In this document: positions 1 to 28,183 of the stretch, one piece after another | Numbering within the stretch: the first letter of the stretch is position 1 | Layout of the letters: each line of letters opens with the position of its first letter | Assembly (NCBI GenBank): GCA_002083485.1 | Contig: LWDK01000036.1 | Coordinates: 36,680-100,679 of the forward strand | DNA: 64,000 nucleotides | From: Proteobacteria bacterium SG_bin7 | GTDB taxonomy: Bacteria > Bdellovibrionota > Bdellovibrionia > Bdellovibrionales > SG-bin7 | Direction of reading: 5' to 3' | Position numbers and translations under genes: made by a program | Notes under the pieces: model-generated | The model's database searches: none | What the model was told of the DNA's origin: nothing | The model's input: only the letters and a program-made list of their open reading frames with translations

Positions 1-1682
1 GCTATTGAATTCATCAGGCGAGGATCGGTGGTTCCGGTAGTTCCCAGTATCCGCTCGATTCTTTCCACATAGCCTTGCGCTATCGCCAGGGGATTATTAA
101 TTTCGTGGCCCACACCAGCGACCATTTCTCCCAATGCTACTAACCGAGAGGACGTTTGCAACTGAGTCATCGCTAGTTTGCGCTCTGTAATATCAAATCG
201 AATTGCTAGGTACTGCCTCCGCCCATCCTCCCCTAAAATTGGCGTTATCGCCGAGTCCACCCAATACAAATCACCACTTTTTCGACGATTGCAAACCTCG
301 CCGTGCCAGATTTTACCAGACTTGATCGTGCTCCACATTTCCTTAAAATAGTCCGCTGGATGAAATCCCGAGTTAAGTATGCGGTGACTCCTGCCAATCA
401 GCTCCTCTTTGGTATATCCATTGATTTCGCAAAACTTATCGTTGACGTAAGAAATTATCCCTTTGTCGTCAGTTATTGAAACAATCGCCGATGCATCCAA
501 ACCGCGAAGAATCTCTAACCTTGATCTCGCCGCAATGTTAGCCTCTGTAACATCTCGAGCCACACTATAAAGTGAACCTGTCGTCAAATCTGGAAATGCG
601 GACCAGTTAAAATTCCGGTAAGAACCATTTTTACAGCGATAACGATTCTCAAAATTAATAACCGAATACCCCGCCGCCAATTTTTCTACTGCCGCAAGTG
701 TCGACGATACGTCGTTGGGATGAACAAAGTCCACAAAGGGTCTTGCTAAAAGTTCCTCCTCTGAATATCCGAGAACTCGTGTAAACGAAGCACTGAGTCT
801 CTTAAACATTCCATCGGTACCGGCAATACAGAGAAGATCTACCGATAGATTAAAAAATGTCTCTAAGGCGTCGGCAATTTCGCGACTAGCCTTAGCCTGC
901 TCGTGGGCTTCTTCTTTAGCAATCCTCAAATGTTTTTGAGAATTTTTCAGTTGAAGGTGAGTAGCTAACATGACCATGCCGAGAAAAATAAACAACCAAA
1001 TCGTGCTACTAGTAATGTAAAACTGCCCGATTAACAAAAAAAGGATTAATGAATAAATCTCGAGAAATTTATCTACCGAAAGAGATTCGGTCTGAACGTA
1101 AAGAACATAGCCAAATAATCCTAAGCCAAAACTTGCGTGAATCGCCATCCGCGAATACTGGCTCCACGATTCTACTAAATTCGAGCCAGTGAAATGGGCA
1201 AATATTGCAAGTGAGCCAATACAAAAAATAAAAATACCACTGTACTGGATAATTCTATTGGTCGTCTGATTCTTAAAAGGTAGGGCAAGCAAGGTCAATA
1301 CCGTAGCACCAAGGCTAAAACACAAGGCGGCTAAGGGGGACATTCGCCCCGGGGGATTAAGACCCGCCATATGGATACTATTGAAAAATAAAAAGTCAAT
1401 TTTATAACTTGTTCCAAATAAATACTGAGCAAAGGTGAGGTAACTGAGTATGCCCAATAAAAAAGTAGGAAGGAGTGAATATAGTTTATTTTTCAACTGC
1501 AACATGAAAACTGATATGCCACCCAAAACAAAACAAATTGCGAGATTAAATCTCATGGGTTCAAAATCAGGATGAATGCGCAATAAAATTTTCGAATCGA
1601 CCAACCATCCAATGATTACTATCACGCCCAAAATCATCATTAAGATCGAAATGGAAATACTTGTCCTTCGCTTCACATTCAT
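1..1682 (-). CDS. Membrane-anchored PAS-PAS sensor histidine kinase (C-terminus cut by window edge)
   Basis: My own minus-strand translation from ATG 1682 gives MNVKRRTSISISILMMILGVIVIIGW... with several hydrophobic helices. Two PAS-like blocks follow (LSVDLLCIAGTDGMFKRLSASFTRVLGYSEEELLARPF; IVSITDDKGIISYVNDKFCEINGYTKEELIGRSHRILNSGFH), then the H-box GEMVAGVGHEINNPLAIAQGY. The frame stays open to base 1, so it is absent from the closed-ORF track. Confidence 0.8.
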   Translation of the reverse strand, partial: MNVKRRTSISISILMMILGVIVIIGWLVDSKILLRIHPDFEPMRFNLAICFVLGGISVFMLQLKNKLYSLLPTFLLGILSYLTFAQYLFGTSYKIDFLFFNSIHMAGLNPPGRMSPLAALCFSLGATVLTLLALPFKNQTTNRIIQYSGIFIFCIGSLAIFAHFTGSNLVESWSQYSRMAIHASFGLGLFGYVLYVQTESLSVDKFLEIYSLILFLLIGQFYITSSTIWLFIFLGMVMLATHLQLKNSQKHLRIAKEEAHEQAKASREIADALETFFNLSVDLLCIAGTDGMFKRLSASFTRVLGYSEEELLARPFVDFVHPNDVSSTLAAVEKLAAGYSVINFENRYRCKNGSYRNFNWSAFPDLTTGSLYSVARDVTEANIAARSRLEILRGLDASAIVSITDDKGIISYVNDKFCEINGYTKEELIGRSHRILNSGFHPADYFKEMWSTIKSGKIWHGEVCNRRKSGDLYWVDSAITPILGEDGRRQYLAIRFDITERKLAMTQLQTSSRLVALGEMVAGVGHEINNPLAIAQGYVERIERILGTTGTTDPRLMNSI

Positions 1683-1773
1683 TTCTATAATTTTAATCGA
1701 AAACTCAGACTGCACTTAGTGAGTAATTGAAAAACCCGATTTAAGTCATGAGATCACGACATGAGTCTGGTAT

Positions 1774-2406
1774 TTAGATTTTTACCATCTTCGTATTTCC
1801 AGCATATTCTTTGTAAGACACCTTTTGGGCTGTGATTTCTTGAATTTTTTTTACAACCTCAGAAATTCGCCAAAGCGATCTGTTTAGCTTTTCATATTTA
1901 CTATTTGATTTTATATCTTGATCGTTCAAGCAGCCAATTGCAATTGTGAGTGGATTGTTAATCTCATGATTGTAGGTTGCGATCATTGCGTCTAGCGCCG
2001 CAACCTCCTTAAGCCGTCCCATTTCTTTGGACAGGTCAGATAGAGCCAAATGAGTTTTTATTCTAGAAACCATAATATCAAAATTAACCGGTTTACTTAC
2101 AAAGTCATTGGCCCCGTCGTGTAGGCAATTTACAACTTCTTGGGTGTCGGACTTTGCCGTCATCATAATTACAGGCAGCTCGATAACATTTGTATGACTT
2201 CTGATTTTCTTCAAAATATCGGTCCCCAGAGTCCCTGGCATCAGAATGTCTAATAGTATCAAGTCAACTTTTTCGAGCGATATAATATCGTAGCACTCTT
2301 TAGCGCTTCTTGCTTCGACGACCTCATATTCCCCTTTACGTTTTAGAACCTCCGCCATCACATCTCGATCAAAATCACTATCGTCAACAATCAAAATTTT
2401 TTTCAT
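1774..2406 (-). CDS. Response-regulator receiver fused to a DHp/HisKA-like H-box domain, with no ATPase domain
   Basis: REC motifs: KILIVDDSDFDRD, VDLILLDILMPG, VIMMTAKSD, SKPV. The H-box YNHEINNPLTIAIGCL follows and the protein ends about 60 aa later without N/G1/G2 boxes. It overlaps the upstream Hpt gene by 4 nt. Confidence 0.8.
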   Translation of the reverse strand: MKKILIVDDSDFDRDVMAEVLKRKGEYEVVEARSAKECYDIISLEKVDLILLDILMPGTLGTDILKKIRSHTNVIELPVIMMTAKSDTQEVVNCLHDGANDFVSKPVNFDIMVSRIKTHLALSDLSKEMGRLKEVAALDAMIATYNHEINNPLTIAIGCLNDQDIKSNSKYEKLNRSLWRISEVVKKIQEITAQKVSYKEYAGNTKMVKI

Positions 2407-2771
2407 TTCACTTCCAACATTGCTTCCAGAAGAACTTGGATTTCGTGCCGAAGCTCAGCTAAGATATTCTCACAACCTTTAAGGTCACCTGACTTTCCTA
2501 GCTTCTCAAGAGCTTCCGCTAAACGTCGGCATGGCTCCGCATGAAAGTGCGAAACCGCACCCTTTAAAGTATGTGCCGAAATTTCCAAATTTTTACTATT
2601 TTTTTCGCTTATGGCAGTATTGATTGCGGTCATCATTCCTGGAACCGTTCCTATAAAGTTGGTGATAACTTTAACCCCAAGATCTGTCATTCCGTGAAAG
2701 TTAGCAAAAAATGCATCGCGATCAAACGGGTAACCATTGATAAATTCTTTTGAGTTTCCTTTAGTAGTCAT
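2403..2771 (-). CDS. Stand-alone Hpt phosphotransfer protein
   Basis: 122 aa, helical, with the Hpt signature ISAHTLKGAVSHFHA (HxxKG). Confidence 0.8.
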   Translation of the reverse strand: MTTKGNSKEFINGYPFDRDAFFANFHGMTDLGVKVITNFIGTVPGMMTAINTAISEKNSKNLEISAHTLKGAVSHFHAEPCRRLAEALEKLGKSGDLKGCENILAELRHEIQVLLEAMLEVK

Positions 2772-2812
2772 GAACTCTCTTTGGTAATATTTCGGAGTTC
2801 TTAAACAAAATC

Positions 2813-3505
2813 TTAATTTTGTAGGATTTTTACCCGCTCAAGCAGTTCTTTAAATTGAAATGGCTTTGATATTGGCGAACTTCCAAGGGGGATAGTCGCC
2901 ATTTGATCTGAGGACGTATACCCCGACATGAACAAGACTTTTGGCATGTTTACAGTGAACAACCGAGAGAGCAAGAACTCCACTTCTGGCCCAAGAAGGT
3001 CTGGCATAAAGATATCCAAAATAACGACCCCAACCTCTTCTTGAACAATTAACTTAAGCGCTTCTGCCCCCATCGTTGAAGTATAAATCTGAAAACCATG
3101 ATCGTGAAGAAAAGCAGATAACAATTCAACCAAGTCAGGTTCATCATCAACAACCAAAACTTTTTTTCTATCTCGCAACAACTTTTTCTGAACTCCAAGC
3201 TGAGCGAAGCCCTTGAAAATATCAAGCGGAAACGGCACGAACTCACGACGAACTGGAGAGTATAACTTCAACTCTATGCGAGAGTCCAGAACACGAAAAG
3301 AAAACAAAGGACCGGTATCGACCCGCTGTTTGAAAAAATTTATTAAATCACTATTTCCAGTATCTTCAAAAAGAATCCATGACGCTGGCGAGGGCATATC
3401 AGTTACCACCGAACCATTTATTTTGTAAAACCAAACATTTTCACTAAATTCTTTGCGAAGAAGTTCTTGGCTGGTATCACTAGAGCAAAAAATATGGAAA
3501 TGCAT
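2813..3505 (-). CDS. Response regulator with a C-terminal receiver; the N-terminal ~110 aa are uncharacterised (possibly a degenerate receiver)
   Basis: C-terminal REC: KKVLVVDDEPDLVELL, VVILDIFMPDLLG, VLFMSGYT, SKPF. The N-terminal part (HFHIFCSSD...WILFEDTG) has a receiver-like beta/alpha pattern but lacks the acidic pocket. Confidence 0.7.
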   Translation of the reverse strand: MHFHIFCSSDTSQELLRKEFSENVWFYKINGSVVTDMPSPASWILFEDTGNSDLINFFKQRVDTGPLFSFRVLDSRIELKLYSPVRREFVPFPLDIFKGFAQLGVQKKLLRDRKKVLVVDDEPDLVELLSAFLHDHGFQIYTSTMGAEALKLIVQEEVGVVILDIFMPDLLGPEVEFLLSRLFTVNMPKVLFMSGYTSSDQMATIPLGSSPISKPFQFKELLERVKILQN

Positions 3506-3541
3506 TCGACAATTATGGCTGCCAAACCATCTCTTGACTAC

Positions 3542-4624
3542 TTATTTTTTACTTATAGACTGTTTTTTTGGAAGGGTCACGACAAACGAAGTATTTAAAG
3601 ACCCAGTATCTAAACTTATCCTGCCGCCGTGAGCTTCTATTAGCTTACGCGCTATACTCAGCCCCAAGCCAGTTCCACTCTGCCTTCCCTTGGTCGTAAA
3701 GAAGGGTGTCATTATTTGGTCAGCAAGATTCGAATCTATCCCAGTGCCAGAGTCGGTGACTCGAATGGTAACGACGCCGCTATCGCACTTTGCGGTAATC
3801 CAAAGGCGACGCTCAAAAAGTGTGCGAACGGCATCAATTGAGTTACCAATCAAATTAATAAGAGCATGGCATATTTCTACAGGTCGACATTCAAACTCAA
3901 ACTCATCTATATCAAGACAGACATTGAGACGAGAGGCCAAAAGTTTTGTTTGGGAGAGGTCTATAATATCATTGAAAAGTTCCCTGGAAGAGGTGTCTAA
4001 AAATGCATCCCTGGCACTTACGTAAGTCATAGCCTTAATTCCCTTGGCAATTTTTGAAATCCGAAAACATACTTGTTCTATTTTATTTACTGCTTCTATC
4101 GCCGCCGATTTTTCTCCCTCTAAATCCTGGATAGCAGATCTTAAGAAGTTTGCTTTTCCGACAATGACGGTTAGAGGACTGTTAATTTCATGGGCAATTT
4201 CTCCCGCCATCAGTCCTAAACTTGACAAATTTGCGACTCGTTCATTTTCCGGCATAAACAAAAGTCCTAAGGAACGTGAACTTATGGGAATTCCAACAGC
4301 CCCAACAATATTAGGCTCAATAAATTCAATAGCCGAAGTTTTTTGATCAACCAAAACTCTAATGAGAGGATATTTCAGGCGGCGTAATGGTGATATATCT
4401 GTAATTTCTGTTCCGACGGTTAACCTACCATCCAAAAAAAGGCGTTCGGCCATTTGATTGTAAGAGCGAAGGACTAAAGTCTTGGACTTTTCTGCCCTAA
4501 AAAAATCAAAAATACATATACCAAAAGGAAGGCCCATAATTAACGCTTCAAGCTCTGTTGCTTCTGAATTGACCGTATTGTACTTAAGTTTCATAGAAGT
4601 TATGCAACCGCCAACATTTGGCAT
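3542..4624 (-). CDS. Cytoplasmic sensor histidine kinase (PAS-like N-terminus, HisKA, HATPase_c)
   Basis: H-box AGEIAHEINSPLTVIVG, N-box ALINLIGNSIDA, G1 VTDSGTGI, G2 SGTGLGLSIA. An alternative ATG at 4594 would avoid the 25-nt overlap with cheB. Confidence 0.85.
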   Translation of the reverse strand: MPNVGGCITSMKLKYNTVNSEATELEALIMGLPFGICIFDFFRAEKSKTLVLRSYNQMAERLFLDGRLTVGTEITDISPLRRLKYPLIRVLVDQKTSAIEFIEPNIVGAVGIPISSRSLGLLFMPENERVANLSSLGLMAGEIAHEINSPLTVIVGKANFLRSAIQDLEGEKSAAIEAVNKIEQVCFRISKIAKGIKAMTYVSARDAFLDTSSRELFNDIIDLSQTKLLASRLNVCLDIDEFEFECRPVEICHALINLIGNSIDAVRTLFERRLWITAKCDSGVVTIRVTDSGTGIDSNLADQIMTPFFTTKGRQSGTGLGLSIARKLIEAHGGRISLDTGSLNTSFVVTLPKKQSISKK

Positions 4625-5664
4625 CTTTTTATAATTTCAGCAGCAATTCGATCGAGAGGAAGAATTTCGTGAACGGCACCCACATCGATTGCCACCTTAG
4701 GCATGCCGAACACAACACATGACTGTTCATTTTGTGCGATATTATAACTACCAGCCTCTTTCATCGCCAACAAACCCTCAGCGCCGTCTTTGCCCATTCC
4801 AGTTAACACTACACCAATCGCATTTGCGCCGGCATATTTAGAAACAGATTTCATCAAATAATCCGCTGCAGGCCGAACGCCGTGCAAAGCAGGTTCTTGA
4901 TGAAGCTTAACAAAATAGTAGGCTCCGCTGCGGGAAAGCTCCATATGAAAATTTCCCGGAGCAATTAAGGCCCGTCCTGGAAAGACCTTATCTCCGTCTT
5001 GTGCCTCTTTGACTTCAAATTGACATAGCTTTTGCAAATTATCGGCATAGGTTTTTGTAAAAACCGGGGGAAGGTGTTGAACAATCACAGTCCCAGGTAT
5101 GTCCGGAGGCAATAGGGGTAACACTCTTTTTAAGGCCTCAGTTCCCCCAGTTGAAGACGCAATCGCCAAAACCGAGTGAGTCGTTTTAGCAAGTGCCGTG
5201 GCTTTAACGTCGGTGGGTCGAGCCCGAACAATGGGAGACAGAGTCCTTTTTTCAGGTAAATTTGACTTTGCGACAACTTTTACGCGTGTGATAATTTCGT
5301 AACGAACGGCTTCCATGGATCGCGTCACATCGATCGCTGGTTTCGCCATCACATCTATCGCACCTACCTCAAAGGCCCGCAAAGTAGTGGCCGAACCTTG
5401 TGTCGATAAACTACTAATAATGAGAGTGCGAGTTGGTAAATGCTGCATAACCTTCTCGAGAAAAGTTACACCATCCATTTTCGGCATTTCTACGTCTAAC
5501 GTCATAACGTCCGGCTTTAACTTCGTAAGCATTTCACGCGCCACATAGGGATCAGGCGCAGAACCAACGACTTCGATTTCGGGGTCAGAACTTAAAAACT
5601 TTGTAAGTAAAGTTCTAATAATTGAAGAATCGTCGACAACAAGAACGCGAATTTTTTGATTCAT
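4600..5664 (-). CDS. cheB: Chemotaxis response regulator protein-glutamate methylesterase CheB
   Basis: The REC domain reads IRVLVVDDSSIIR and VMTLDVEMPKMDG. The esterase domain has intact triad contexts: AIASSTGGTEAL, VIVQHLPPVFT, LTGMGKDGAEG. Confidence 0.9.
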   Translation of the reverse strand: MNQKIRVLVVDDSSIIRTLLTKFLSSDPEIEVVGSAPDPYVAREMLTKLKPDVMTLDVEMPKMDGVTFLEKVMQHLPTRTLIISSLSTQGSATTLRAFEVGAIDVMAKPAIDVTRSMEAVRYEIITRVKVVAKSNLPEKRTLSPIVRARPTDVKATALAKTTHSVLAIASSTGGTEALKRVLPLLPPDIPGTVIVQHLPPVFTKTYADNLQKLCQFEVKEAQDGDKVFPGRALIAPGNFHMELSRSGAYYFVKLHQEPALHGVRPAADYLMKSVSKYAGANAIGVVLTGMGKDGAEGLLAMKEAGSYNIAQNEQSCVVFGMPKVAIDVGAVHEILPLDRIAAEIIKRCQMLAVA

Positions 5665-7208
5665 CAGGCAACTCTCTTATTTCTAATTTCCATAACCGTG
5701 TTGGCAAAATCACCCGCGCTTTTGACGTAGTCTACAATTCCCAAATTAATTGCCTGTTGAGGACCGTAAGGAAAAGCACATAAATCCGGATCTTCAACGA
5801 GAGTAACATTGCCACTGGCGCGCATAGCCGCCAACCCGTCAACACCGTCACGGCCGAATCCACTCATAAGCACTCCTAAAGCGCCACCGCGCTCACAACT
5901 TGCGATCGACGCCATCAGCACATCGCTTGATGGCTTTTGGCCATTTACTGGAGGGAGTTGTCGAAGTTTCGCATAAAAATTATTGGATTGAGTTTCAACC
6001 ACAATATGGTTGTCTGCGGGAGCAAAATAAACATTTCCAGAGGTCAAGTGTGTGTTTTCTTTAACAACCGAAAGTCTAACAGAAACATTTTTTTTAATTT
6101 TTTGAATGTAGGCTTCGATAAACGAAGATAATGTCGAGTTGGCAACAATAACCGGCGGCGTATCACTGTTTAGCGACTGAAGAAATGCTTTTAAACCGTC
6201 TTGCGACCCCGTATTTCCGCCCACGGCAATCAATTTTAAACCCTGAATCCCTAAACCACTTACGGCATATTCGACCTTGGTATCAGATTTTTTTTGAGAC
6301 CGATTTGCCAAAACTTTTTGACTAGCTGCCGCCTTCACTTTCTCAACTAACGTTTCTCCAAGTTGCTTGATAACGGCGGGATCATACTGCGATGGTTTGT
6401 GAATAAACTCAATCGCCCCTAGCTCCAGAGCTCTAAGAGCAGCCTCGCCCTGGCTTCCCAACGACGACACCATAACAACTGGCAGCGGCATGTGTTTCAT
6501 CAACTTCTCTAAAAAAACGACGCCGTTCATTTTTGGCATCTCGATATCCAAGGTAATAACATCAGGTTTATGTTTTACCAGCATTTCACGTGCCTGATAC
6601 GGATCGGCAGCAACACCAACCACGTCTAGACCGTGTTTTGAAAAGACATTTTGGAAAAGCGATCTTACCGTCGCCGAGTCGTCAACAATTCCGACTTTGA
6701 CTTTGCGGATGGGCTCTAACTTTATTCGCCCTGAAATATCCACTTGAGAATTCTCGTCTTGATTGATAAACCTATGTATGACATTGAAGTCCGACACATT
6801 GATAGTAATCTTTCGGCTAAGCTCTCCACCCACATTTTGCTCGACAACAGGAATTCCGAGATTGGCAAGCGTCTCAAATGCAAAGTCGATATTCTTTTTC
6901 CCGACGCCAATTCCAATCTGCACATCGGTAAGTACGGCCCCACCTCCGTAGACCTTTGCCTTTAAATTCCGCCGTGAGGCACCCAGTCGTTCCAATTCTT
7001 GGATTAGCATGGGAATAGCGCATTCACCATAGCGTCCACTTGCAACTTCTCCTTGAGGAAGTTTTGTCAAAAGATAGTGGTTAAGGCCAGCACACTTTGC
7101 TAGGGGATCATACAAAACCACCGATACACAAGAGCCAAGAATTGTTGTTAATTCAACAGGGTCCTTTGACACAGCCAAACGCCCCGGCAACACATAGAGA
7201 GTTTTCAT
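5664..7208 (-). CDS. Three-domain fusion: CheD deamidase, receiver, and a CheB-like domain with a degenerate catalytic triad
   Basis: CheD part: TILGSCVSVVLYD, AGLNHYLL, KAKVYGGGAVL. REC part: KVGIVDDSATVR, VITLDIEMPKMNG, HKP. The CheB-like part reads IAVGGNTGS / PVIVANSTL / MSGFGRDGVDG, against ASSTGGT / VIVQHLPP / GMGKDGAEG in the neighbouring CheB. Confidence 0.85.
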   Translation of the reverse strand: MKTLYVLPGRLAVSKDPVELTTILGSCVSVVLYDPLAKCAGLNHYLLTKLPQGEVASGRYGECAIPMLIQELERLGASRRNLKAKVYGGGAVLTDVQIGIGVGKKNIDFAFETLANLGIPVVEQNVGGELSRKITINVSDFNVIHRFINQDENSQVDISGRIKLEPIRKVKVGIVDDSATVRSLFQNVFSKHGLDVVGVAADPYQAREMLVKHKPDVITLDIEMPKMNGVVFLEKLMKHMPLPVVMVSSLGSQGEAALRALELGAIEFIHKPSQYDPAVIKQLGETLVEKVKAAASQKVLANRSQKKSDTKVEYAVSGLGIQGLKLIAVGGNTGSQDGLKAFLQSLNSDTPPVIVANSTLSSFIEAYIQKIKKNVSVRLSVVKENTHLTSGNVYFAPADNHIVVETQSNNFYAKLRQLPPVNGQKPSSDVLMASIASCERGGALGVLMSGFGRDGVDGLAAMRASGNVTLVEDPDLCAFPYGPQQAINLGIVDYVKSAGDFANTVMEIRNKRVA

Positions 7209-8161
7209 GCGGCAATAATCCTATCAACGTCGACGATCAAAACGGTTTTCTTTTCACTAATACTAATATGGCTGACCAAACTTTTTCCCGAACCGGACAA
7301 TCGATCATTTTTTTGAAAATTTCCAACATTAAGCTCATCAATTTGTTGAGCTTGTTCAATAGGAAATCCAAAACGAACCCCATCAACATTACAAATGACA
7401 ATAAAAGATTTTTCGAGATTCGTGCATTCCCCGAAAGTAAGTTTTAAATCCAGTATAGGCATGACCTCACCCCGCAGATTCATAAGGCCCATAAGATCAG
7501 CTCGATGCGCAGGCATTATATTCAGTTTTTTAAACTGCACCACTTCAACGACTTTGGTAACAGGAATTCCGAATTGTCGTCCTTGATTCACACATAGGAG
7601 GAAAACTCGCTTTTCTGGTAAAGCCTCCTTTTTCTCTAAAGGGGGAATTTCCTTAGCGACCCTATTATTAGGTGGGATAGGCTGACTGACTTTTTCTTCG
7701 GAAACGACAGCCTGAATTTGGTCGGCTTTTGTACTTTTAACCATCCAAGATGACAAATTGTTAAGTAACGGACTATAAGTTTCTAAGAGGGAAGCAGTAT
7801 CTTCGAGTGTATTTGATAGATCAATTAAATACTTTTCTACCGACTGTAAAACATTTGAGAGCTGAAACTCCAGATTCATTAGCGAGTCTGTTATTTTGTT
7901 AACCTCTGTGGCCGAGATTTCCTCTTTTATTTTGGTCAGTCGAGTTTCTATTTCGTGTACAAACTGTCCACAAAAACTAAAACCAACCGCCTGAACATTG
8001 CCTTTCAAACTGTGAAAGGACTTCATAACCTTATCAAGAACCTCTATAGGATTCTTAGACAGTTCGGGCAAAACCTCTCTTGCCTCAGTCACATACTCTT
8101 GGCTGTCCACAGCACATTGTTTCTGTAAGTCTTTTAAAAACCCGTCTTCCGCCGCTGTCAT
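7205..8161 (-). CDS. Hpt(P1)-CheW(P5) protein: CheA-like but without dimerisation and ATPase domains
   Basis: N-terminal P1-type Hpt motif MKSFHSLKGNVQAVGF. C-terminal CheW-like domain FLLCVNQGRQFGIPVTKVVEVV...LMNLRGEVMPILDL. No N/G1/G2 boxes anywhere in the 318 aa. Confidence 0.8.
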   Translation of the reverse strand: MTAAEDGFLKDLQKQCAVDSQEYVTEAREVLPELSKNPIEVLDKVMKSFHSLKGNVQAVGFSFCGQFVHEIETRLTKIKEEISATEVNKITDSLMNLEFQLSNVLQSVEKYLIDLSNTLEDTASLLETYSPLLNNLSSWMVKSTKADQIQAVVSEEKVSQPIPPNNRVAKEIPPLEKKEALPEKRVFLLCVNQGRQFGIPVTKVVEVVQFKKLNIMPAHRADLMGLMNLRGEVMPILDLKLTFGECTNLEKSFIVICNVDGVRFGFPIEQAQQIDELNVGNFQKNDRLSGSGKSLVSHISISEKKTVLIVDVDRIIAA

Positions 8162-8170: not shown

Positions 8171-10279
8171 CTAAGCCGCATTGGCTGTCTGCTCTTTCGA
8201 TAGTAAAGTTATCATGTCCTCTGGAGACACCACATAAGCAATTTTTTCGTTCCCTAACATCGTCGTACCCTTAAACCCGGGAAGGCTTTTTACAATATTG
8301 TCAAAAGATCTCACCACGGCTTCAAGCTGGTCTTCGATGCGGTCGATCAACAGCCCAATAAACTTATGCTTATAACGAATGATGACCGCCGATTTGCTTC
8401 TCACCGACTCCACAGACTCGATATTTCTGTTCTCAAGGAGTTCATCAAAACTTCGCAATACAATAGTTTGGCCGTCAAATTCGCACATTCTCGTTTGATC
8501 AAGTTCTGTTAACTGAAGTTGATCACAAGACATAATTCTGGCTATCGAGGTCAGTGGAACCGCAAACACGGCGTCTTTCCAGGCCCCCAAAACTGTGTGC
8601 TCAACCATCACCGCCTTTGGAACCGGTATCTCAATGGTAAAAGTAGTTCCTTTACCAAGGGATGAGCCAATCTTTACGTTTCCAGCGTGTTGAAGTACGG
8701 AAGACTTAACGACATCCATTCCGACGCCACGACCCGACACGCCTGTGACCTTTTCAGCTGTAGAAAATCCTGGTAAAAAAATCAAATCAAACACTTCTGC
8801 GTCCGACATACCCTGTGACTTTTCTTTAGTTACAAGTTGATTTTGAATAGCTTTTGCAATGACCTTATCCCTAGGGATTCCGTTACCATCATCACTTACC
8901 ACGATGTTAATGACGCCTTGGCTTTCTGAAGCCTTGATATTAATGATTCCCTCTTCACTCTTCCCACGCTCTCGTCTTACCGATGGAGTTTCAAGACCGT
9001 GATCGATAGAGTTACGAACCATATGCACCAAACAACTTCCCAATGATTTGGCAATATTTTTATCAACTCCTAACTCTAACCCTTCGGTCGTAAATTTAAC
9101 TTTCTTTCCAACCTCTTGACTTGTCTGACGCACAATTCGATTCAACTTACTGAAAGCTTTCTCGAGAGAGACTTTTCGCACTGACATTATGTGTTCCTGG
9201 AGATGGTCAGTAATTTTATTCAGGCTATAAGCGAATTCTGCATGTTTTTTCTCGAGCTTTTGCGGATTATTTCTAATTTCATGATCGCGACTCATCATGT
9301 GAAAATGGTTCTTTAGTACAATGAGTTCTCCGGACAAAGCCATAAAAGAGTCAAGTTTTTCATTAGACACCCAGATCCCTTCATCTTCTTGTGTAAAGTC
9401 CTCTTTACCAGAATTGGATGAAGGGCTAGAATTAATCGTAGCCACTGCCATTGACTCAGGAACAGCCGCCTGATTCTTTTTTTCTTTCAGATCTTTTAGT
9501 TGCTCAATAACAGAATCTACTTTTTTTCGAAGCTCTGGATCTACTTGATCGTCGACTTTAATGATTTGAAGAAGTTTTAGCACCAAATCCGTAGATTCAA
9601 GGAAAGTATTAATCGCGTGTGCGTTTGGCTTAAACTCTCTCTTTTTTATAAGCGCCAGTACTGATTCAAATTCGTGTGCGAGTGTACTTAAAGTTTTTGC
9701 TTGCGGAATAGCTCCCGCTCCCCCCTTTACTGAGTGAACTTTGCGAAAAAGTGAATCTACAACCACAAGATCCAGCGGCTCTTCTTCAAGCCGAAGCACC
9801 AATTGATCAGCATCGCTCATGAGGTCATGGGATTCTTCAACGAAGAGTTGGGTAATCTCTAAAACCTCTTTCTTCTCTTGTTCAATGTCAGCAATTCTTT
9901 TTTGTGCATACTTAATGACTAAGGATCGCAACTGGTCTGACGGAATTGGCTTTTCAACAATATCGTTAACGCCCTGACTTAAACTGGCCATTGCCAACGT
10001 TTTATCGCTATAAGCGGTTACAAAGACAAAAGGTAGAGCCGGCAAAGTCTTACGCAACTCCTGACAAAAAACCAGCCCATCCATTCCCGGCATCTTAAAA
10101 TCAGAAAGAATCAGAAAAGGTACCGTGGACTTAACGGCTTCAATAGCATCTTTAGGATTAGAAAATGTACGTACGCGAATACCTGTCTCTTGAATTACCG
10201 CAGAGACTACCTGAAGGATTTCTTCTTCGTCATCAACAATAAAAACTTCTTCGTTTAGATTCAATTTTAACTGACTCAT
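8171..10279 (-). CDS. cheA: CheA histidine kinase with an N-terminal receiver domain (REC-P1-P3-P4-P5)
   Basis: REC: VFIVDDEEEIL, LILSDFKMPGMDG, FVTAYSD, EKPI. P1: FRKVHSVKGGAGAI. P4: HMVRNSIDHGLE, VSDDGNGI, GVSGRGVGMDVVK. C-terminal CheW-like domain present. Confidence 0.9.
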   Translation of the reverse strand: MSQLKLNLNEEVFIVDDEEEILQVVSAVIQETGIRVRTFSNPKDAIEAVKSTVPFLILSDFKMPGMDGLVFCQELRKTLPALPFVFVTAYSDKTLAMASLSQGVNDIVEKPIPSDQLRSLVIKYAQKRIADIEQEKKEVLEITQLFVEESHDLMSDADQLVLRLEEEPLDLVVVDSLFRKVHSVKGGAGAIPQAKTLSTLAHEFESVLALIKKREFKPNAHAINTFLESTDLVLKLLQIIKVDDQVDPELRKKVDSVIEQLKDLKEKKNQAAVPESMAVATINSSPSSNSGKEDFTQEDEGIWVSNEKLDSFMALSGELIVLKNHFHMMSRDHEIRNNPQKLEKKHAEFAYSLNKITDHLQEHIMSVRKVSLEKAFSKLNRIVRQTSQEVGKKVKFTTEGLELGVDKNIAKSLGSCLVHMVRNSIDHGLETPSVRRERGKSEEGIINIKASESQGVINIVVSDDGNGIPRDKVIAKAIQNQLVTKEKSQGMSDAEVFDLIFLPGFSTAEKVTGVSGRGVGMDVVKSSVLQHAGNVKIGSSLGKGTTFTIEIPVPKAVMVEHTVLGAWKDAVFAVPLTSIARIMSCDQLQLTELDQTRMCEFDGQTIVLRSFDELLENRNIESVESVRSKSAVIIRYKHKFIGLLIDRIEDQLEAVVRSFDNIVKSLPGFKGTTMLGNEKIAYVVSPEDMITLLSKEQTANAA

Positions 10280-10286
10280 TAAGGCC

Positions 10287-11198
10287 TCACATCTTTCTCA
10301 ATTTTTTATAAACTGCGTGACTTAAGGTTTTCACATCTTTAGACCTCATGGCACCCGACTCTGAATGGCCCAAAAATAGAAGGCCCTCAGGCGTAAGAAA
10401 ATGAAGCGCATTTTCAACAACCCTATGAGCAGTTTGAGGATCAAAGTAAATCAAAACATTGCGACAAAAGATAATGTCAAAGTTGCCCTTAAACGGATAA
10501 GGCTCGTCGACCAGATTTAAAGGTGCAAAACGCACAAATTTTTGAAAATCCGGCAGGATCTGAAAAAGTGTGCCTTCCACCTTTGTCAACTTTCTAAAAT
10601 ACTTCTGACGCATCAAAACAGGAACCCCTTCAATTTCCTTCTCACTATAAACGGCTTTACTCGCTTTTTGTAACACCTCGAGATCTATATCTGTTGCCAA
10701 AAAACGAAAATCCCAATTTTTTATAGAATCGCCAAAAAATTCAAGTATGGTAAGCAAAATAGAATAGACCTCTTGTCCTGTGCTAGCGGCGCCACACCAA
10801 ATACGTAGCTCACGAGAATTTTCTGCTTTCTTTCTTGCTAAAATTTCCGGAAGGACTGAAGTTAAGAAACTAAAATGAGCATTTTCACGGAAGAAATGAG
10901 TGGTATTGGTGGTGAGCGATTGCACAAAATTTCTTTTTATAACTTCGTCGCCGGTCTTCAGTCTCTTAACTAAATCTCCATATTTTGCAATTTTGTGACT
11001 CTTCATCAGTGACATCAATCGCGTTGCCATAAGCGAATGATTTTTGGGATTCGAAGCAAGATTAATTCCTGCATACCCTTTCAAAAGCAATGCGAGCTCA
11101 AGAAAGCCCTTCACATCAGATTGGAGGATAGCCAACATTTCTTGACTATCAGAAAGATATTCTGTCGCCGCAACCACCGCACTTTGATTAAATTTCAT
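10287..11198 (-). CDS. cheR: Chemotaxis protein methyltransferase CheR
   Basis: Reads FFRENAHF, then the SAM-binding block RIWCGAASTGQEVYSI, then FDIIFCRNVLIYF. Overlaps the upstream cheA by 4 nt. Confidence 0.9.
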   Translation of the reverse strand: MKFNQSAVVAATEYLSDSQEMLAILQSDVKGFLELALLLKGYAGINLASNPKNHSLMATRLMSLMKSHKIAKYGDLVKRLKTGDEVIKRNFVQSLTTNTTHFFRENAHFSFLTSVLPEILARKKAENSRELRIWCGAASTGQEVYSILLTILEFFGDSIKNWDFRFLATDIDLEVLQKASKAVYSEKEIEGVPVLMRQKYFRKLTKVEGTLFQILPDFQKFVRFAPLNLVDEPYPFKGNFDIIFCRNVLIYFDPQTAHRVVENALHFLTPEGLLFLGHSESGAMRSKDVKTLSHAVYKKLRKM

Positions 11199-12859
11199 AT
11201 AGCCTCTGGTCGAAGTTGTCCGACATCATTGTTAACCAAATCATGAAGGCCATAAGCATTAATGACCAATGCCACCCGCCCGTCACCCAAAATTGCCGCC
11301 CCAGAAATTCCCCGAACTTCTTTGAAATTGTTGCCGAGAGGTTTCAGGACAACTTGGGTTTGACCCACGACTTCATTGACACCAACGACAAGTTGTTTTT
11401 TGCCAGCTTCAAGAAGAACATACATTTGGGGAGGAGCATGCTGACTAACTGATTTACTAAAGGCTTGACCTAGATTCAAAATTCGAACTGCCACGCCTCG
11501 ATGATTTAAAGCCTGGAGTCCATCTTCAATAGAAATGAACTCCGCACCGGTGGGGTAAATCAGTTCCCGGATACAATCTAAAGGGATAATATAGTAGAGG
11601 CGACCGACACGCACAATGAGTCCGTCCGTTATCGAAGTTGTCAAAGGAATCGAAATCGTGATTTTCGTTCCAACGGACAGTTGGGAAGAAACCTCAACAG
11701 CGCCCTTCATCTTTTCGATGTTGGATTTTACAACATCCATACCGACACCGCGGCCAGAAACATCCGTTACAACTTCTGCCGTTGAAAATCCTGGTTCAAA
11801 AATAAATAGAAATATTTGCTGCTCAGAAAAAGATGAAAGCAATTGATCTTTGGCCACGAGACCCTTTTCCTTGGCCTTTTCGAAAATTTTCTCCGTGTTA
11901 ATTCCGGCTCCATCGTCGATGACTTCAATAGTAACACGATCCCCCTGTTGACGAGCCGAAACTTTTATTTTTCCAGTCGCGACTTTTCCGCGGCTCACTC
12001 TTGTCGAGGTTGGCTCGATTCCATGATCTAATGAGTTGCGTACAATATGCATAAGTGGATCGGCAAGCAGCTCTACCATTGACCGATCAATTTCAATATC
12101 TTCACCAGACATTTCCAGCTCGACCGATTTCGAAATTTTCACAGATAGATCGCGCACCAACCTCTGCATTTTTAAGAAAAGTGGCTTCAGCGGCATCATT
12201 CTTAAAATCAAAGTTTTCTCTTGAATTTCGCGAATGGCTTTATCAAGTTGCGAGACAATCGAAATAAGTCGGACATCTCCCAAATAATTTTGGCATTGAT
12301 TCAGTACCTGACTCTTAATGACGACGAGCTCGCCGACAGAATTCAACAGTGTTTCAACGACACCTGAATCTATTTTTATACTGCTTGCACCGGAATTAGT
12401 AGTCATGTGGGTCAGCTTAGCTACTTTCGCTTTTGGCTTCTCGTTTGATTCCGTGGGAATTTCAGCGCGAAGCTTTTCGATAAGTTTCTGCAATTCCAAA
12501 AATAGTTGCGAGTTATCCCAGATGGACCCATCGCGAGTCTTCAACATCGCAATTCGGGTTTTAAAAGCATCATCACATAGTAAAAGTAGTGATATTATCT
12601 CTGTGTTGATTTTTTCCGGACAAACACGTAATATGGCGAGAAGATCTTCAACAACATGGGCAAATGCGGATAAATCTGTAAACCCGACGGCAGCGCCAGT
12701 TCCCTTCATCGAATGAACAAGTCTAAATATCCGATTCAGTTCCTCAGTACGACTCTCAGGTTTTTCGAGGTTTAAATAGGACTCCTCACACTCTTCCAAC
12801 ATGAAAGTAATTTCATCTAAAAATTCTTTTTGAAACCCCTCAAGCGCAAATTCTTCCAT
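11195..12859 (-). CDS. cheA: CheA histidine kinase (P1-P3-P4-P5)
   Basis: P1: FRLVHSMKGTGAAVGF. P4: HIVRNSLDHGIE, VIDDGAGI, DVSGRGVGMDVVK. C-terminal CheW-like domain LIVRVGRLYYIIPL. Confidence 0.9.
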   Translation of the reverse strand: MEEFALEGFQKEFLDEITFMLEECEESYLNLEKPESRTEELNRIFRLVHSMKGTGAAVGFTDLSAFAHVVEDLLAILRVCPEKINTEIISLLLLCDDAFKTRIAMLKTRDGSIWDNSQLFLELQKLIEKLRAEIPTESNEKPKAKVAKLTHMTTNSGASSIKIDSGVVETLLNSVGELVVIKSQVLNQCQNYLGDVRLISIVSQLDKAIREIQEKTLILRMMPLKPLFLKMQRLVRDLSVKISKSVELEMSGEDIEIDRSMVELLADPLMHIVRNSLDHGIEPTSTRVSRGKVATGKIKVSARQQGDRVTIEVIDDGAGINTEKIFEKAKEKGLVAKDQLLSSFSEQQIFLFIFEPGFSTAEVVTDVSGRGVGMDVVKSNIEKMKGAVEVSSQLSVGTKITISIPLTTSITDGLIVRVGRLYYIIPLDCIRELIYPTGAEFISIEDGLQALNHRGVAVRILNLGQAFSKSVSQHAPPQMYVLLEAGKKQLVVGVNEVVGQTQVVLKPLGNNFKEVRGISGAAILGDGRVALVINAYGLHDLVNNDVGQLRPEAI

Positions 12860-12861
12860 GT

Positions 12862-13383
12862 TTATGCTCGCCTCTTTGTTATTAACATAGTTTTCTTCAT
12901 GACTAACAATTGGCGCTTAATATCTCTGACTTTTGCAAGTTGTATCGGGTCAAGATTTTGAAAGAGACTGTCTTTTCCACTCTCCTCCTCCAACGAACTT
13001 AACTGCTGTCCAAGTTCACATGATTTTTTAATGACCGAAAACAGTTCACTCTGTTGATATGGCTTTTCCAAAAAGTCAAAGGCTCCCAACTTCAAGGCTT
13101 CGATTACCTTCGCCTTATCACCATAGCCGGTCAAAAAAACAAAAGGGACGAAGTTATCCATCTCTCTTAAGTTTTTAAGCAGTTCGAGGCCATTCATTTC
13201 TGGCATATTGATGTCAGAAAGAATCGCGTCAATTGTGCGCTCTCCACCATTTACAATTTTAAGAGCGCTGGCACCATTCTCCGCCAAAACGATATTGATT
13301 GGAAGCAACTGGAGTTGCTCAAAGAGCACCTCCTGAAGATCATGATCGTCTTCCACAACTAGCAAAGTCGCCTTAGCATTCAT
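12862..13383 (-). CDS. CheY-like single-domain response regulator with a ~50-aa C-terminal helical extension
   Basis: REC: TLLVVEDDHDL, ILSDINMPEMNG, VFLTGYGD, EKPY. I placed the start at ATG 13383 (MNAKATLL), 13 nt after the cheW stop; the ORF-track start at 13428 overlaps cheW. Confidence 0.8.
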   Translation of the reverse strand: MNAKATLLVVEDDHDLQEVLFEQLQLLPINIVLAENGASALKIVNGGERTIDAILSDINMPEMNGLELLKNLREMDNFVPFVFLTGYGDKAKVIEALKLGAFDFLEKPYQQSELFSVIKKSCELGQQLSSLEEESGKDSLFQNLDPIQLAKVRDIKRQLLVMKKTMLITKRRA

Positions 13384-13396
13384 AAACCCTACATAT

Positions 13397-13870
13397 CTAC
13401 GCAGCGATATTTTGACTCGAAATCGCATTCTGAATCTTGGTCAGTTCGCTATGACCTAGAGCCTTTACGATATCTATCAAAATCACTACGGTGTTATCTA
13501 TTTTCCCCATCCCAATAACATACGAAATTTTGGATTCTTCTCCCATCGCAGGGCGCGGTTCAATTTGCTCCGCCGAGAGGTCTATTACCCCGCTCACTGA
13601 GTCCACTATCATTCCGACCTGCCCGGCGTCGCTCTCGATGACGATAATGCAAGTTTCTCGTGTATGAGGAACCGATGGAATCCCAAATTTCATTCTTAAA
13701 TCTACGACTGGAATTACCTTACCACGCAGATTTATAACTCCAGCCACAAAACCAGGTGTCTGAGGAACGGGAGTAATGTCGGTGACCCGATTAATCTCCC
13801 TTACCGAGCCAATGGGAACTCCATAGGGCTGGGACTTCAACGAAAATGTTAAAAATTGCTTTGTGGACAT
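13397..13870 (-). CDS. cheW: Chemotaxis coupling protein CheW
   Basis: CheW fold motifs: QFLTFSLKSQPYGVPIGSVREI, VINLRGKVIPVVDLRMKFG. ATG 13870 (MSTKQF) lies 4 nt after the MCP stop. Confidence 0.85.
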   Translation of the reverse strand: MSTKQFLTFSLKSQPYGVPIGSVREINRVTDITPVPQTPGFVAGVINLRGKVIPVVDLRMKFGIPSVPHTRETCIIVIESDAGQVGMIVDSVSGVIDLSAEQIEPRPAMGEESKISYVIGMGKIDNTVVILIDIVKALGHSELTKIQNAISSQNIAA

Positions 13871-13874
13871 CGTA

Positions 13875-15902
13875 TTAAAACCCATCTGTTGTTCCAACTT
13901 TATTGGCCACGTCCTCATCAAAAGGAATAGCCTGCGTAGCTGGAGTCGGGCGCTTCAATTTGCTAACGAACTTTTTTGCGGTGTTGATTGGCCGCACATC
14001 GTGATGACTAGCGACGGTCTTACCTTTTTCGTCGCCACGAGATGTTTCATTGTTGGTGCCCTGGATTAACAGGGTCATTTCAGATACAAGTCCTTTCAGG
14101 GTATCAGCCTGACTTGACATCTCGGTTGCCGATGCTGCGACTTCCTCAGATGCAGATGCATTTTGCTGAGTTGATTGATCTAATTCATTCATGGCTTTGC
14201 TGATCTGACCTATGCCATTGGCCTGTTCGGCACTTGCCGAGGCAATCTCACTATTTAAATCTGACACCTTCTTAACACTGGTCACGATATTTTTAAGAAC
14301 ATTTCCACTGGCGTCGGCGATTTTCGTACCACTTTCAATTTGTGAAACGCTATCTTTAATTAAAGCGGTAATATCTTTAGCTGCTGAAGCGCTTCTCTGT
14401 GCCAGGTTTCTTACGGCCTCTGCAACAACTGCAAACCCTTTGCCCTGTTCACCAGCTCGGGCAGCTTCCACAGCAGCGTTAAGCGCCAGCAAATTGGTCT
14501 GAAACGCAATATCGTCTATCACGTTTATAATTTCTTCGATTTTTTTCGAGCTTTGTGAAATTTCTTTCATCGACGAAATTAAATTTCTAATTTCTGTCTC
14601 GCCTTCTTCTGCAGACTTTGTACTCGTTTGAGAAAGTGAGGCGGCCTGTTTGGCATTGTCAGCATTGAGTTTTACCATGCTTGACAACTCTTCGATCGAA
14701 GAAACAGTTTCTTCAAGAGACGCAGCCGCTTCTGTAGATCCCGAAGATACTTGTTGACTCGCCGAAGAAAGTTGAGCGCTTGCCGAAGAGACTTGAACTC
14801 CCGACTCAGCGATCTGCTTAGTAATATCGGACAAGCGGTTGGCGATACGCACTGACAAAAACCAAGCCACAACCAAGAAGATCAAGGCCAGAGTTCCAGT
14901 AATAATTTGGAATTGCCATGCGGCTTTATCAATGGCCGCAAACACTTCATCAGAAGCGATACGCACCAAGGTTCCCCAACCTAAAGCATTCGCAAATTTA
15001 TCAGATGTTATCGGCCCATAACCTATAACTTGATCAATTCCCTTGCGTGCATGCCTTCCCGTCGTTGAGCCCGAGCGACCACCGACAATTTCCTTAGCAG
15101 CAAATACTCCGCGCTCCGCAAGATTAAGCTTTCCTAAAACACTGGAGTCGTGTTTTACTTCAAGGTTGCCACCATTAACCGAGGGATCATAATCGACAAT
15201 TACATTTCCAGCCTTATCAAGTATTGTTAGTTCAGCAGAACCAAGTTTCGCTGCCTTGAATCTTTTATATAAATCTACAACCTCATTCTCAACCCACCTG
15301 AAATTAGCGCGATTTGTAAGGACACCCATTGGCTTTCCAGTTGAATCTTTAACCAAGGCGCTAAAACTGTTGCCATAGATGTCTTTCTTTAATACCGCTG
15401 AACTAATAGGATCAAAATGAGCGCTTTCAACAAAAGTTCCAACTAAACCTTTTTTAGGATCTTCGGTTAAGTTGTTGTTGGACACAGCTTTGAACCAGGC
15501 CTCGCTATTATACATTTTGGATTGAAGGGGCGTGGTATCAATGGGCTTACCAGACGCATCGACTGCATTTGCCGCGATAAAGTGACCGGACATATCCACG
15601 AACATGACAACGTCGTAGATCCCGTAAAGCGTGACATACTCGTTAAAAGTTTTCGTCAAGATTTTTGAATCCTTAAGATTAAAAGCGTGATTTTTAGCGA
15701 AAGCCTGAACATCGAAATAGCGCTCGTAAAATTGTGACGCAATACCAAGTCCGAGACCTTCAGAGTGGGATCCGAAATTCTCTAGTATATTATTCCGTTG
15801 CTCATTGAGTGCCATTCGAAATTGAACAAAATTTGCGGCTCCGAAAACTAGCAGAACCCCAAACATCATCATAACTATTTTTGCTTTAAAACTTTTAAAC
15901 AT
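13875..15902 (-). CDS. Methyl-accepting chemotaxis protein with a large (~300 aa, double-Cache-like) periplasmic domain
   Basis: Two TM segments (aa ~9-27 and ~325-347). The highly conserved hairpin tip reads [37 protein letters not shown]. Candidate methylation heptads: [38 protein letters not shown]. Confidence 0.9.
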
Positions 15903-28182: not shown

Positions 28183-28183
28183 T

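Follow-up and report, generated by a model that had tools for sequence, protein, structure and literature searches.

The window analysed here is a stretch of 64,000 nucleotides (nt) from Proteobacteria bacterium SG_bin7 of the Bdellovibrionota (contig LWDK01000036.1, positions 36,680 to 100,679 of the forward strand), and coordinates below refer to positions in it. From 15902 down to 1774, open reading frame (ORF) listing and Pfam scans recover 13 co-directional genes on the minus strand that make up a chemosensory cluster followed by a phosphorelay cassette. Their order is MCP, CheW, CheY-like receiver (REC), CheA1, CheR, REC-CheA2, Hpt-CheW, CheD-REC-CheB*, CheB, histidine kinase (HK), x-REC, Hpt and REC-DHp, where the asterisk marks a CheB domain with replaced catalytic residues. 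This order and these domains reproduce those of a first-pass annotation of the same DNA, and its count of parts also holds: one receptor, one CheR, one stand-alone CheW, two complete CheA kinases, a third P1 domain, two CheB-type proteins and a His-Asp-His-Asp relay. The genes and their immediate flanks are as follows.

15903..16192, minus strand: divergent intergenic region of 290 nt upstream of the MCP gene (ORF listing), with an AGGAG ribosome-binding site 6 nt before the MCP ATG
13875..15902, minus strand: MCP chemoreceptor, 675 amino acids (aa) (MCPsignal E 8e-52)
13397..13870 (longest ORF to 13921), minus strand: CheW coupling protein (CheW E 3e-39; 38% identical to E. coli CheW)
12862..13383 (longest ORF to 13428), minus strand: CheY-like single receiver with a C-terminal helical tail of ~55 aa (Response_reg E 7e-27)
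11195..12859, minus strand: CheA1, P1(H49)-P3-P4-P5 (Pfam Hpt, H-kinase_dim, HATPase_c and CheW)
10287..11198, minus strand: CheR methyltransferase (CheR E 8e-52; 36% identical to E. coli CheR)
8171..10279, minus strand: CheA2, REC(D60)-P1(H182)-P3-P4-P5 (Pfam domains)
7205..8161, minus strand: Hpt-CheW, P1(H50)-linker-P5 (Hpt and CheW domains)
5664..7208, minus strand: CheD(C27/H44)-REC(D221)-CheB* fusion (CheD, REC and CheB domains)
4600..5664, minus strand: canonical CheB methylesterase with an intact Ser171/His197/Asp293 triad and REC Asp57, 50% identical to E. coli CheB
3542..4594 (longest ORF to 4624), minus strand: soluble histidine kinase with an N-terminal domain of ~130 aa, H-box AHEINSPL and HATPase_c (Pfam; L084 gene call)
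2813..3505, minus strand: x-REC receiver protein (D164) with a 115-aa N-terminal alpha/beta domain (Pfam; N-terminal region conserved in L084)
2403..2771, minus strand: stand-alone Hpt (His67; Hpt E 2e-12)
1774..2406, minus strand: REC-DHp (D53; H-box TYNHEINNPL with His147), lacking an ATPase domain, the terminal component of the cassette (REC and a weak HisKA H-box)
1..1682, minus strand: membrane double-PAS histidine kinase, which begins at 1682, 91 nt beyond REC-DHp, and is truncated by the window edge

With the longest ORFs, successive junctions from the MCP gene onwards measure -47, -32, +2, -4, +7, +9, -4, -1, -25, +36, +41, -4 and +91 nt (negative values are overlaps), and include ATGA overlaps at 2403-2406, 7205-7208 and 11195-11198 and a TAATG overlap at 5664. 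These overlap types, and the membrane PAS kinase after 91 nt, are as first annotated. The junction range given there ran from a 25-nt overlap to a 41-nt gap; the gap stands and the overlap probably does not. We corrected gene starts from the onset of homology and from the gene calls in L084, a 90%-identical relative. By these comparisons CheW probably starts at ATG 13870, leaving a 4-nt gap, the CheY-like gene probably at ATG 13383, leaving a 13-nt gap, and the HK probably at ATG 4594, leaving a 5-nt gap, so that the 25-nt CheB/HK overlap is probably an artefact of choosing the longest ORF. With the corrected starts, all junctions within the 13-gene run lie between a 4-nt overlap and a 41-nt gap. 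The intergenic region at 15903..16192 is likely the operon promoter region; sigma-70-like matches to the consensus are weak there. Across promoters and terminators, the consensus scan returned fewer sites than in shuffled sequence, with no terminator in the intergenic gaps. The scan and the spacing are compatible with a single operon but are no proof of one. We also considered the PAS kinase at 1-1682 as a member of the unit, but L084 has an opposite-strand gene in that place and the kinase probably lies outside.

Direct reading finds every phospho-acceptor in place: the His of the three P1 domains, of the stand-alone Hpt and of the two H-boxes, and the Asp of six receivers. All six receivers retain the acidic pocket, phospho-acceptor Asp, Thr/Ser and Lys. 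We read the region, with moderate confidence, as two units that run in the same direction, a chemosensory unit (unit 1, 15902-4600) and a relay cassette (unit 2, 4594-1774).

At the centre of unit 1 are CheA2, the CheW-containing adaptor and the CheD-REC-CheB* fusion, a triad whose members are adjacent in every locus that we compared and which thus forms an invariant core. The N-terminal domain of the fusion matches the CheD structure 2F9Z as well as the CheD models of Pfam and NCBIfam. We take the catalytic residues of T. maritima CheD to be Cys27 and His44. Alignment of the C-terminal domain with Salmonella CheB 1A2O (E 6e-62) shows that the catalytic Ser164 is replaced by Asn332 and the catalytic His190 by Ser357, while Asp454 is retained. 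The Ser position is Asn in 121/121 family sequences, and the His position in these sequences is Ser, Ala, Gly, Pro or Cys but never His, which bears out the degeneracy that the first annotation had flagged. Invariant across the same 121 sequences are the CheB* Asp, the five active-site residues of the receiver, and Cys27 and His44 of CheD. Judging from this pattern of conservation, CheB* is a conserved, selected and catalytically dead CheB fold, the CheD domain is probably active and the receiver of the fusion is phosphorylatable. A CheD-REC-CheB fusion with an intact Ser/His/Asp triad occurs at 16076-17677 of locus L164, a Bdellovibrionota-like contig, beside a REC-DHp cassette and other che genes, and it is plausible that this fusion represents the active precursor state of the pseudo-CheB fusion.

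Both CheA1 and CheA2 have intact N, G1, F and G2 boxes and lack a P2 domain. The N-terminal receiver of CheA2 keeps its active-site residues in eight of nine lineages. The N-terminal domain of Hpt-CheW aligns with the P1 domain of T. maritima CheA, including the phosphorylated His, which is conserved in seven lineages; the Hpt domain is absent from the 254-aa Bdellovibrio homologue.

We compared gene contexts across loci from genomes and metagenomes, designated by L numbers. The fusion of the window is 100% identical to a protein of the SG_bin7 metagenome-assembled genome. The best 120 fusion homologues listed are full-length, 46-90% identical to the window protein, and all consist of CheD, REC and CheB; the named organisms among them are Bdellovibrio, Bdellovibrionota, Oligoflexia and Pseudobdellovibrionaceae. 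The contexts of the fusion fall into three grades. The first is the complete nine-gene order of unit 1, found in the window, L084 (90% identity), L001, L089 and L093 and, rearranged, in L088; a variant in L085, L002, L091 and L092 lacks the CheY-like gene and the P1 domain of CheA1. The second has a single kinase in the order CheR-REC-CheA2-Hpt-CheW-fusion-CheB, with MCP and CheW nearby (L087, L094/L095). CheA2 is also the sole kinase in L104, in another arrangement with neither CheR nor a canonical CheB detected nearby. The third is a minimal triad in Bdellovibrio (L081, L090, L096-L105), made up of a CheA2 with no receiver, an X-CheW protein with no Hpt, and the fusion. It is present in an HD100-type genome of B. 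bacteriovorus (L081; CP160490.1, ~535.4-539.5 kb), where it stands alone and the receiver of the fusion is the sole receiver in the module. The synteny search that had been proposed as a check on the first annotation therefore places the nine-gene cluster in at least seven lineages and shows the relay cassette to be separable from it.

Some parts come and go together across these loci. CheA1-P1 and the CheY-like gene are both present in six lineages and both lost in L085; CheA1 and CheY are both absent from L087/L095, L104 and the Bdellovibrio triads. In the L085 lineage (L085 6953-9034; also L002, L091 and L092) the CheA2 receiver has an eroded acidic pocket, with DD changed to AT, alongside the loss of CheA1 P1 and of CheY. 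The CheA2 receiver and the Hpt domain of the adaptor occur together in all non-Bdellovibrio lineages checked (the L104 adaptor left out) and are both absent in Bdellovibrio, a joint loss that may be a single evolutionary event. In the L085 lineage an additional 142-aa receiver follows cheB.

Our placement of the unit 1 proteins among the chemosensory classes draws on heptad counts, scores against NCBIfam models, percentage identity to the E. coli counterparts and a neighbour-joining (NJ) tree, together with the F-class rules in PMC6943060, PMC7184735 and PMC11253619. The receptor has a first transmembrane segment at ~8-27, a periplasmic domain of ~300 aa and a second transmembrane segment at ~331-353, with no room for a HAMP domain. 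Its cytoplasmic domain aligns without gaps to E. coli Tsr 276-517 and differs in length by 28 residues from the 44H receptor TM1143. The receptor therefore belongs to class 36H, which answers the question of heptad class raised in the first-pass annotation. The F7 pathway preferentially uses 36H receptors (MiST3 paper, PMC6943060) and Aer2-like F7 receptors are all 36H (Ortega et al. 2020, PMC7184735); the sole 34H receptor of P. syringae was assigned to an F8 cluster (PMC11253619). The best NCBIfam models for the receptor are Vibrio Aer2 and then E. coli Tcp/Tar/Tap/Tsr, with equal match lengths. Its ligand-binding domain is probably dCache-like: the dCache_1 match is below threshold (E 0.023), PF02743 is recorded in two homologues, and a homology search with the periplasmic domain gave four hits.

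E. coli-type NCBIfam models rank first for CheW, CheR and CheA1 (for the last, PRK10547 at 401 bits against CheA_Halo at 360 bits); for CheA2 the haloarchaeal CheA model scores above the E. coli model. The CheA1 core is 41.6% identical to E. coli K-12 CheA and CheA2 32.7%. In the NJ tree of P3-P5 cores, the CheA1 clade is sister to E. coli CheA plus the CheAs of Aer2 clusters, and the CheA2 proteins form a separate clade with the kinases of the Bdellovibrio triads. CheA2 is 25-33% identical to CheA1 and to F7-type CheAs, so the kinases do not all belong to F7. The first annotation had held that assignment of every component to one standard flagellar F-class with an already described synteny would refute its reading, and the separate clade of CheA2 indicates that the components are not of one class.

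A search with the fusion alignment also returned apparently full-length distant hits of 33-39% identity (L106-L134), which we rejected as fusions after finding separate, adjacent cheD and canonical cheB genes. These distant metagenomic loci have the classic Aer2-type order CheY-CheA-CheW-multiPAS/HAMP MCP-CheR-CheD-CheB, and L130, which reads CheY-CheA-CheW-multiPAS MCP-CheR-CheD-CheB, served as the Aer2-type reference locus. Compared with the window, Aer2-type loci have CheAs 39-41% identical to CheA1 and MCP signalling domains that are mostly 50-63% identical. By these sequence comparisons the backbone of unit 1 looks like an F7/Aer2-type operon with extra parts and not like something unclassifiable. 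The earlier statement that the composition matches none of the Wsp, Frz, Che3 and Chp types holds, since there is no CheA with a C-terminal receiver, no GGDEF protein, no multi-Hpt ChpA and no pil gene; the F7/Aer2 type, which the 36H MCP, CheA1 and CheB do match, had not been considered there. On the simplest reading, the genes for CheA2 and Hpt-CheW were placed between cheR and cheD, and cheD was fused to a receiver and a CheB-like domain.

We therefore favour, if only a little beyond the balance point, a model of two units: a nine-gene operon derived from an F7/Aer2-type cluster with a built-in CheA2 module, followed by an autonomous relay cassette. All phosphotransfer partners, and the output in the cell, are inferences that we draw from synteny and from the conservation of residues. 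In unit 1, the 36H transmembrane receptor would form arrays with CheW and CheA1, and CheA1-P1 would phosphorylate the CheY-like protein as output, as well as CheB; CheR and CheB would adapt the receptor. The CheY-like protein is a candidate output regulator of CheA1, and we pair the two because several lineages either have both CheA1-P1 and the CheY-like gene or have neither. CheA2 and Hpt-CheW might use their P5/CheW domains to join the same receptor array, and CheA2 might phosphorylate the fusion's receiver, either itself or by way of the additional P1 in Hpt-CheW; we pair CheA2 with the fusion because the fusion's receiver is the only one in the Bdellovibrio triad. Phosphorylation of this receiver could then control the access to receptors of an active CheD domain with deamidase or receptor-binding activity, with the dead CheB domain acting as a scaffold for receptor docking or autoinhibition. 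Through its N-terminal receiver, CheA2 could be cross-regulated by CheA1-P1, Hpt-CheW or the relay Hpt. The joint decay of CheA1 P1, CheY and the CheA2 receiver pocket in L085 hints that CheA1-P1 also talks to the CheA2 receiver.

The three P1-bearing proteins could also be wired in another way. CheA1, CheA2 and Hpt-CheW might form one composite kinase in a single complex, in which the P4 domains phosphorylate any P1 in trans and the P1 domains differ by the receiver that they serve. The His residue is conserved in all three P1 domains, Hpt-CheW has the P1-P5 architecture of CheA3 (PMC3591291), and CheA1 of L085/L002 is, like CheA4, a P3-P4-P5 protein and so must phosphorylate a P1 in trans. 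Each kinase in the window has its own P1, however, so trans-phosphorylation is not required there; Hpt-CheW lacks the long phosphatase region of CheA3, and the Bdellovibrio homologue has lost its Hpt domain although the triad is kept. We regard the composite kinase as possible and lean moderately away from it, and return to the two-unit model, in which each kinase has preferred partners.

Several observations weigh against this model as we have drawn it. The candidate methylation positions of the receptor that match those of Tsr (E391, E398, E405 and E587) are all Glu and none is Gln, which leaves a CheD deamidase without an obvious substrate on the only receptor of the cluster; CheD may therefore target other receptors or act by binding alone. 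The B. bacteriovorus triad has no adjacent MCP, CheR or CheB and can thus use components encoded elsewhere, so the neighbouring receptor is not necessarily the one that the triad serves in the window. In L087/L095 the CheA2 receiver is intact although there is no CheA1, and another donor must therefore exist for it, either Hpt-CheW or the relay Hpt. The partner assignments are read from gene co-occurrence, and several of these patterns may be single evolutionary events; the minimal triads, for example, all belong to one Bdellovibrio clade. Co-transcription is deduced from gene spacing, and the class placement relies on proxies rather than on the MiST class hidden Markov models.

It is also conceivable that the locus holds no more than adjacent, unrelated systems: F7 flagellar chemotaxis acting through the CheY-like protein, a CheA2 triad that works with receptors encoded elsewhere, and an independent relay. 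This would suit a backbone close to E. coli-type proteins, a triad that is a stand-alone three-gene unit in B. bacteriovorus, a relay cassette that is autonomous in other genomes, and kinases that are deep paralogues. Yet at least seven lineages, which conserve the two-kinase arrangement although their fusion proteins are down to ~50% identity, have the triad at one and the same place between cheR and cheB, and its junctions overlap or are shorter than 10 nt. This fixed position and tight spacing argue for co-expression and for a shared receptor array. Moreover, one MCP and one stand-alone CheW are all that the cluster offers to four P5/CheW-like domains, the correlated decay in L085 suggests cross-talk between the kinases, and the CheY-like receiver finds its best NCBIfam matches among FixJ/NtrC-type proteins and not CheY, and carries a C-terminal tail. 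Mere adjacency of three systems is therefore rather doubtful, and we retain a CheA2 module built into the F7-type operon.

The relay cassette forms a complete His-Asp-His-Asp set of residues, namely the H-box His of the HK, D164 of x-REC, H67 of Hpt and D53 of REC-DHp. Neither the N-terminal domain of the HK nor that of x-REC has a Pfam match, and a single-sequence AlphaFold model of x-REC is of low confidence (mean pLDDT 61). The family of REC-DHp has more than 115 members, ~210-220 aa long and 44-58% identical to the copy in the window. The receiver residues are invariant in this family. His147 does not vary across an alignment of 53 sequences and reaches at least 90% conservation in a set of 116, and PF00512 is recorded for many of the homologues. 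An AlphaFold model (pLDDT 83) predicts helices at 109-160 and 168-193, with the last helix of the receiver continuous through His147; a Foldseek search with this model matched receiver domains only. From the H-box and the predicted helical hairpin, we identify the C-terminal part in this model as a DHp hairpin without an ATPase domain. Its conserved His might pass the phosphoryl group on, or the protein might act as a regulated phosphatase; we know of no described function for this type of regulator. Near-identical H-boxes are seen in the PAS kinase at 1-1682 (GHEINNPLA), in REC-DHp (NHEINNPLT) and in the relay HK (AHEINSPLT).

Orthologues of the stand-alone Hpt adjoin REC-DHp in L087, L095, L161, L162 and L164, and in relatives a single hybrid kinase combines the first two or three relay modules. 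L161 (Fluviispira vulneris) and L162 carry a cassette of hybrid HK-REC, Hpt and REC-DHp with no che genes within 10 kb, and such a free-standing cassette with its own sensor kinase indicates that the cassette is autonomous. Beside che genes it occurs in three arrangements: in the window and L084 as four unfused genes immediately following cheB, in L087/L095 as REC-DHp with a fused hybrid kinase at a distance of one gene, and in L164 between a CheA/CheR-REC/REC operon and a CheW-MCP-CheR-CheD-CheB operon. L093 was examined as a further che-linked case and rejected, the hit there being a full REC-HisKA-HATPase kinase.

The first-pass annotation had proposed one integrated pathway with a non-motility output, in which the Che kinases feed phosphoryl groups into the HK-REC-Hpt-REC-DHp relay as the output of the system. 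The position of the relay after cheB in the window and L084, with a 5-nt gap (or the 25-nt overlap of the longest ORF), and the three che-adjacent arrangements of REC-DHp cassettes fit this proposal, as do the four P1/Hpt donors and six receivers, which exceed what a simple pathway needs. So does the absence of motility genes: the 39 ORFs that we scanned between 16 and 64 kb of the window include none for flagella, pili or gliding, and the first annotation had likewise seen no flagellar or pilus genes nearby, the side beyond position 1 lying outside our view. The relay begins, however, with its own complete soluble kinase and needs no Che input; the cassette stands without che genes in L161 and L162, and the nine-gene clusters of L085, L088 and L089 have no cassette within 10 kb. 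In addition, the REC-DHp of the window is, L084 apart, closer to copies such as that of the che-free L162 (55-58% identity) than to the che-linked copies of L087/L095 (41-45%). Adjacency to che genes thus survives from the earlier proposal, the feeding of the relay by the Che pathway is weakened, and we consider a single integrated pathway unlikely. Within the two-unit model, the relay is probably co-transcribed with the chemosensory unit and may be functionally coupled to it; for such coupling between relay and Che pathway we see about equal chances either way.

A more far-reaching reading would make the locus an undescribed Bdellovibrionota branch of chemosensory signalling, in which CheA2 and the P1-P5 adaptor phosphorylate CheD-REC-pseudoCheB, deamidation or receptor binding comes under kinase control, the dead esterase serves receptor recognition, and the REC-DHp relay couples a second, cytoplasmic kinase. 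Taken as a whole, this is a tentative proposal that we would sooner doubt than accept.

Other signalling genes lie elsewhere in the window. A four-gene operon at 25170-28924 (plus strand) encodes a receiver, an H-NOX haem-NO-binding protein (HNOB, E 8e-41), a hybrid histidine kinase-receiver and an N-terminally extended receiver, and looks like an NO- or haem-linked phosphorelay. A signalling cluster at 45453-49884 (minus strand) comprises a sigma-54-dependent response regulator, a PAS kinase, a single receiver and a REC-PAS kinase. At 16193-17533 (plus strand), in divergent orientation to the MCP gene, is an outer-membrane porin gene of the Alginate_exp family, a family also found near the che cluster of L087 (415-2082); in L093 an OprB porin gene (2675-3835) lies between cheW and cheY. 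A beta-carbonic anhydrase gene adjoins cheW in L087, and the window has a copy at 32105-32782. These porin and carbonic anhydrase neighbours may be remnants of a conserved neighbourhood. The ORF at 43799-45307 (minus strand) has a TGase_elicitor domain (E 1e-41), a family known mainly from oomycetes, which would make it unusual in a bacterial genome. An ORF of 336 aa with a TTG start at 22080-23090 (plus strand) has beta-CASP and RMMBL domains and no match to the usual N-terminal metallo-beta-lactamase domain of the family; its start may be wrong, or the gene may be frameshifted or truncated.

Chemosensory pathways that employ two or more kinases are poorly understood, and it is likewise unclear what ancestral F7/Aer2-type systems do. 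The cluster described here offers a natural, conserved design in which two paralogous CheA kinases and an extra P1-P5 protein are encoded with one receptor, and in which a CheD modifier is hard-wired to a receiver and to a dead CheB domain that is under selection in more than 100 sequence clusters. Should the proposed wiring be true, it would constitute a new mode of regulating receptor modification and an example of a pseudo-enzyme in bacterial chemotaxis. The minimal triad occurs in B. bacteriovorus, a cultured and genetically tractable predator, so that the hypothesis, including a role in predation or the lifestyle switch, can be tested genetically. The REC-DHp cassette represents a type of regulator that is widespread in Bdellovibrionota.

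We found no published description of the cluster, of the CheD-REC-pseudoCheB fusion or of the REC-DHp cassette, and nothing relevant on CheD-CheB fusions, Bdellovibrio che clusters or Bdellovibrio class assignments, in a literature search of incomplete coverage. Among known systems, the Wsp, Chp and Frz types differ from the window. Wsp-type ACF systems have a CheA with a C-terminal receiver and a GGDEF output, whereas the receiver of CheA2 is N-terminal and the cluster has no GGDEF protein. Chp/Tfp systems combine a multi-Hpt ChpA that has a C-terminal receiver with PilG/PilH and pil genes, but each window kinase has one Hpt domain and no pil gene is found in 64 kb. The Frz system has the CheA-CheY fusion FrzE, the dual-receiver FrzZ and a cytoplasmic receptor, whereas the cluster here encodes no protein of these designs and its receptor has two transmembrane segments.

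The ancestral F7/Aer2-type systems (P. aeruginosa Che2 and V. cholerae cluster III; PMC7184735 stage 1/2) share with the window a 36H signalling domain and CheD. Of their gene order, cheY-cheA-cheW-aer2-cheR-cheD-cheB, the window keeps the relative positions of cheY-cheA1, cheR, cheD and cheB, but its operon is led by mcp-cheW and has two genes inserted between cheR and cheD. Aer2 is a soluble PAS-HAMP receptor, whereas the receptor of the window spans the membrane, lacks HAMP and has a periplasmic part of ~300 aa. The window also differs in having no STAS/anti-sigma antagonist or phosphatase genes, in a cheD fused to a receiver and a dead CheB domain, and in a second CheA with an N-terminal receiver.

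The pairing of two CheA-type proteins in one operon with one receptor set is likewise found in CheA3/CheA4 (CheOp3) of R. sphaeroides, in which CheA4 phosphorylates the P1-P5 protein CheA3 in trans (PMC3591291). A CheA3-like P1-P5 protein without P3/P4 is present in the window as Hpt-CheW, which would likewise dock on the array and could be phosphorylated only in trans, but it lacks the phosphatase region of CheA3, and the relationship that we see is one of common domains alone. A CheA4-like kinase without P1 is a feature of the L085/L002 lineage only, both kinases of the window having a P1. In classical phosphorelays, of the hybrid kinase-Hpt-response regulator or the Spo0F-Spo0B type, the same series of HK His, REC Asp, Hpt His and REC Asp is used as in the window, whose terminal regulator differs in having no DNA-binding or enzymatic output and, in its place, a DHp hairpin without an ATPase. 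In B. subtilis, CheC binds CheD more tightly in the presence of CheY-P, which in this way controls CheD on receptors (PMC3513319). CheD is thus under the control of a phosphorylated receiver there, and the fusion in the window, which keeps the catalytic Cys and His of CheD, might be controlled in a similar manner, although its receiver is fused to CheD, a dead CheB is attached and there is no CheC. All parts of the locus are therefore known domain types and its backbone fits a known class, while the overall design is unusual and appears to be undescribed.

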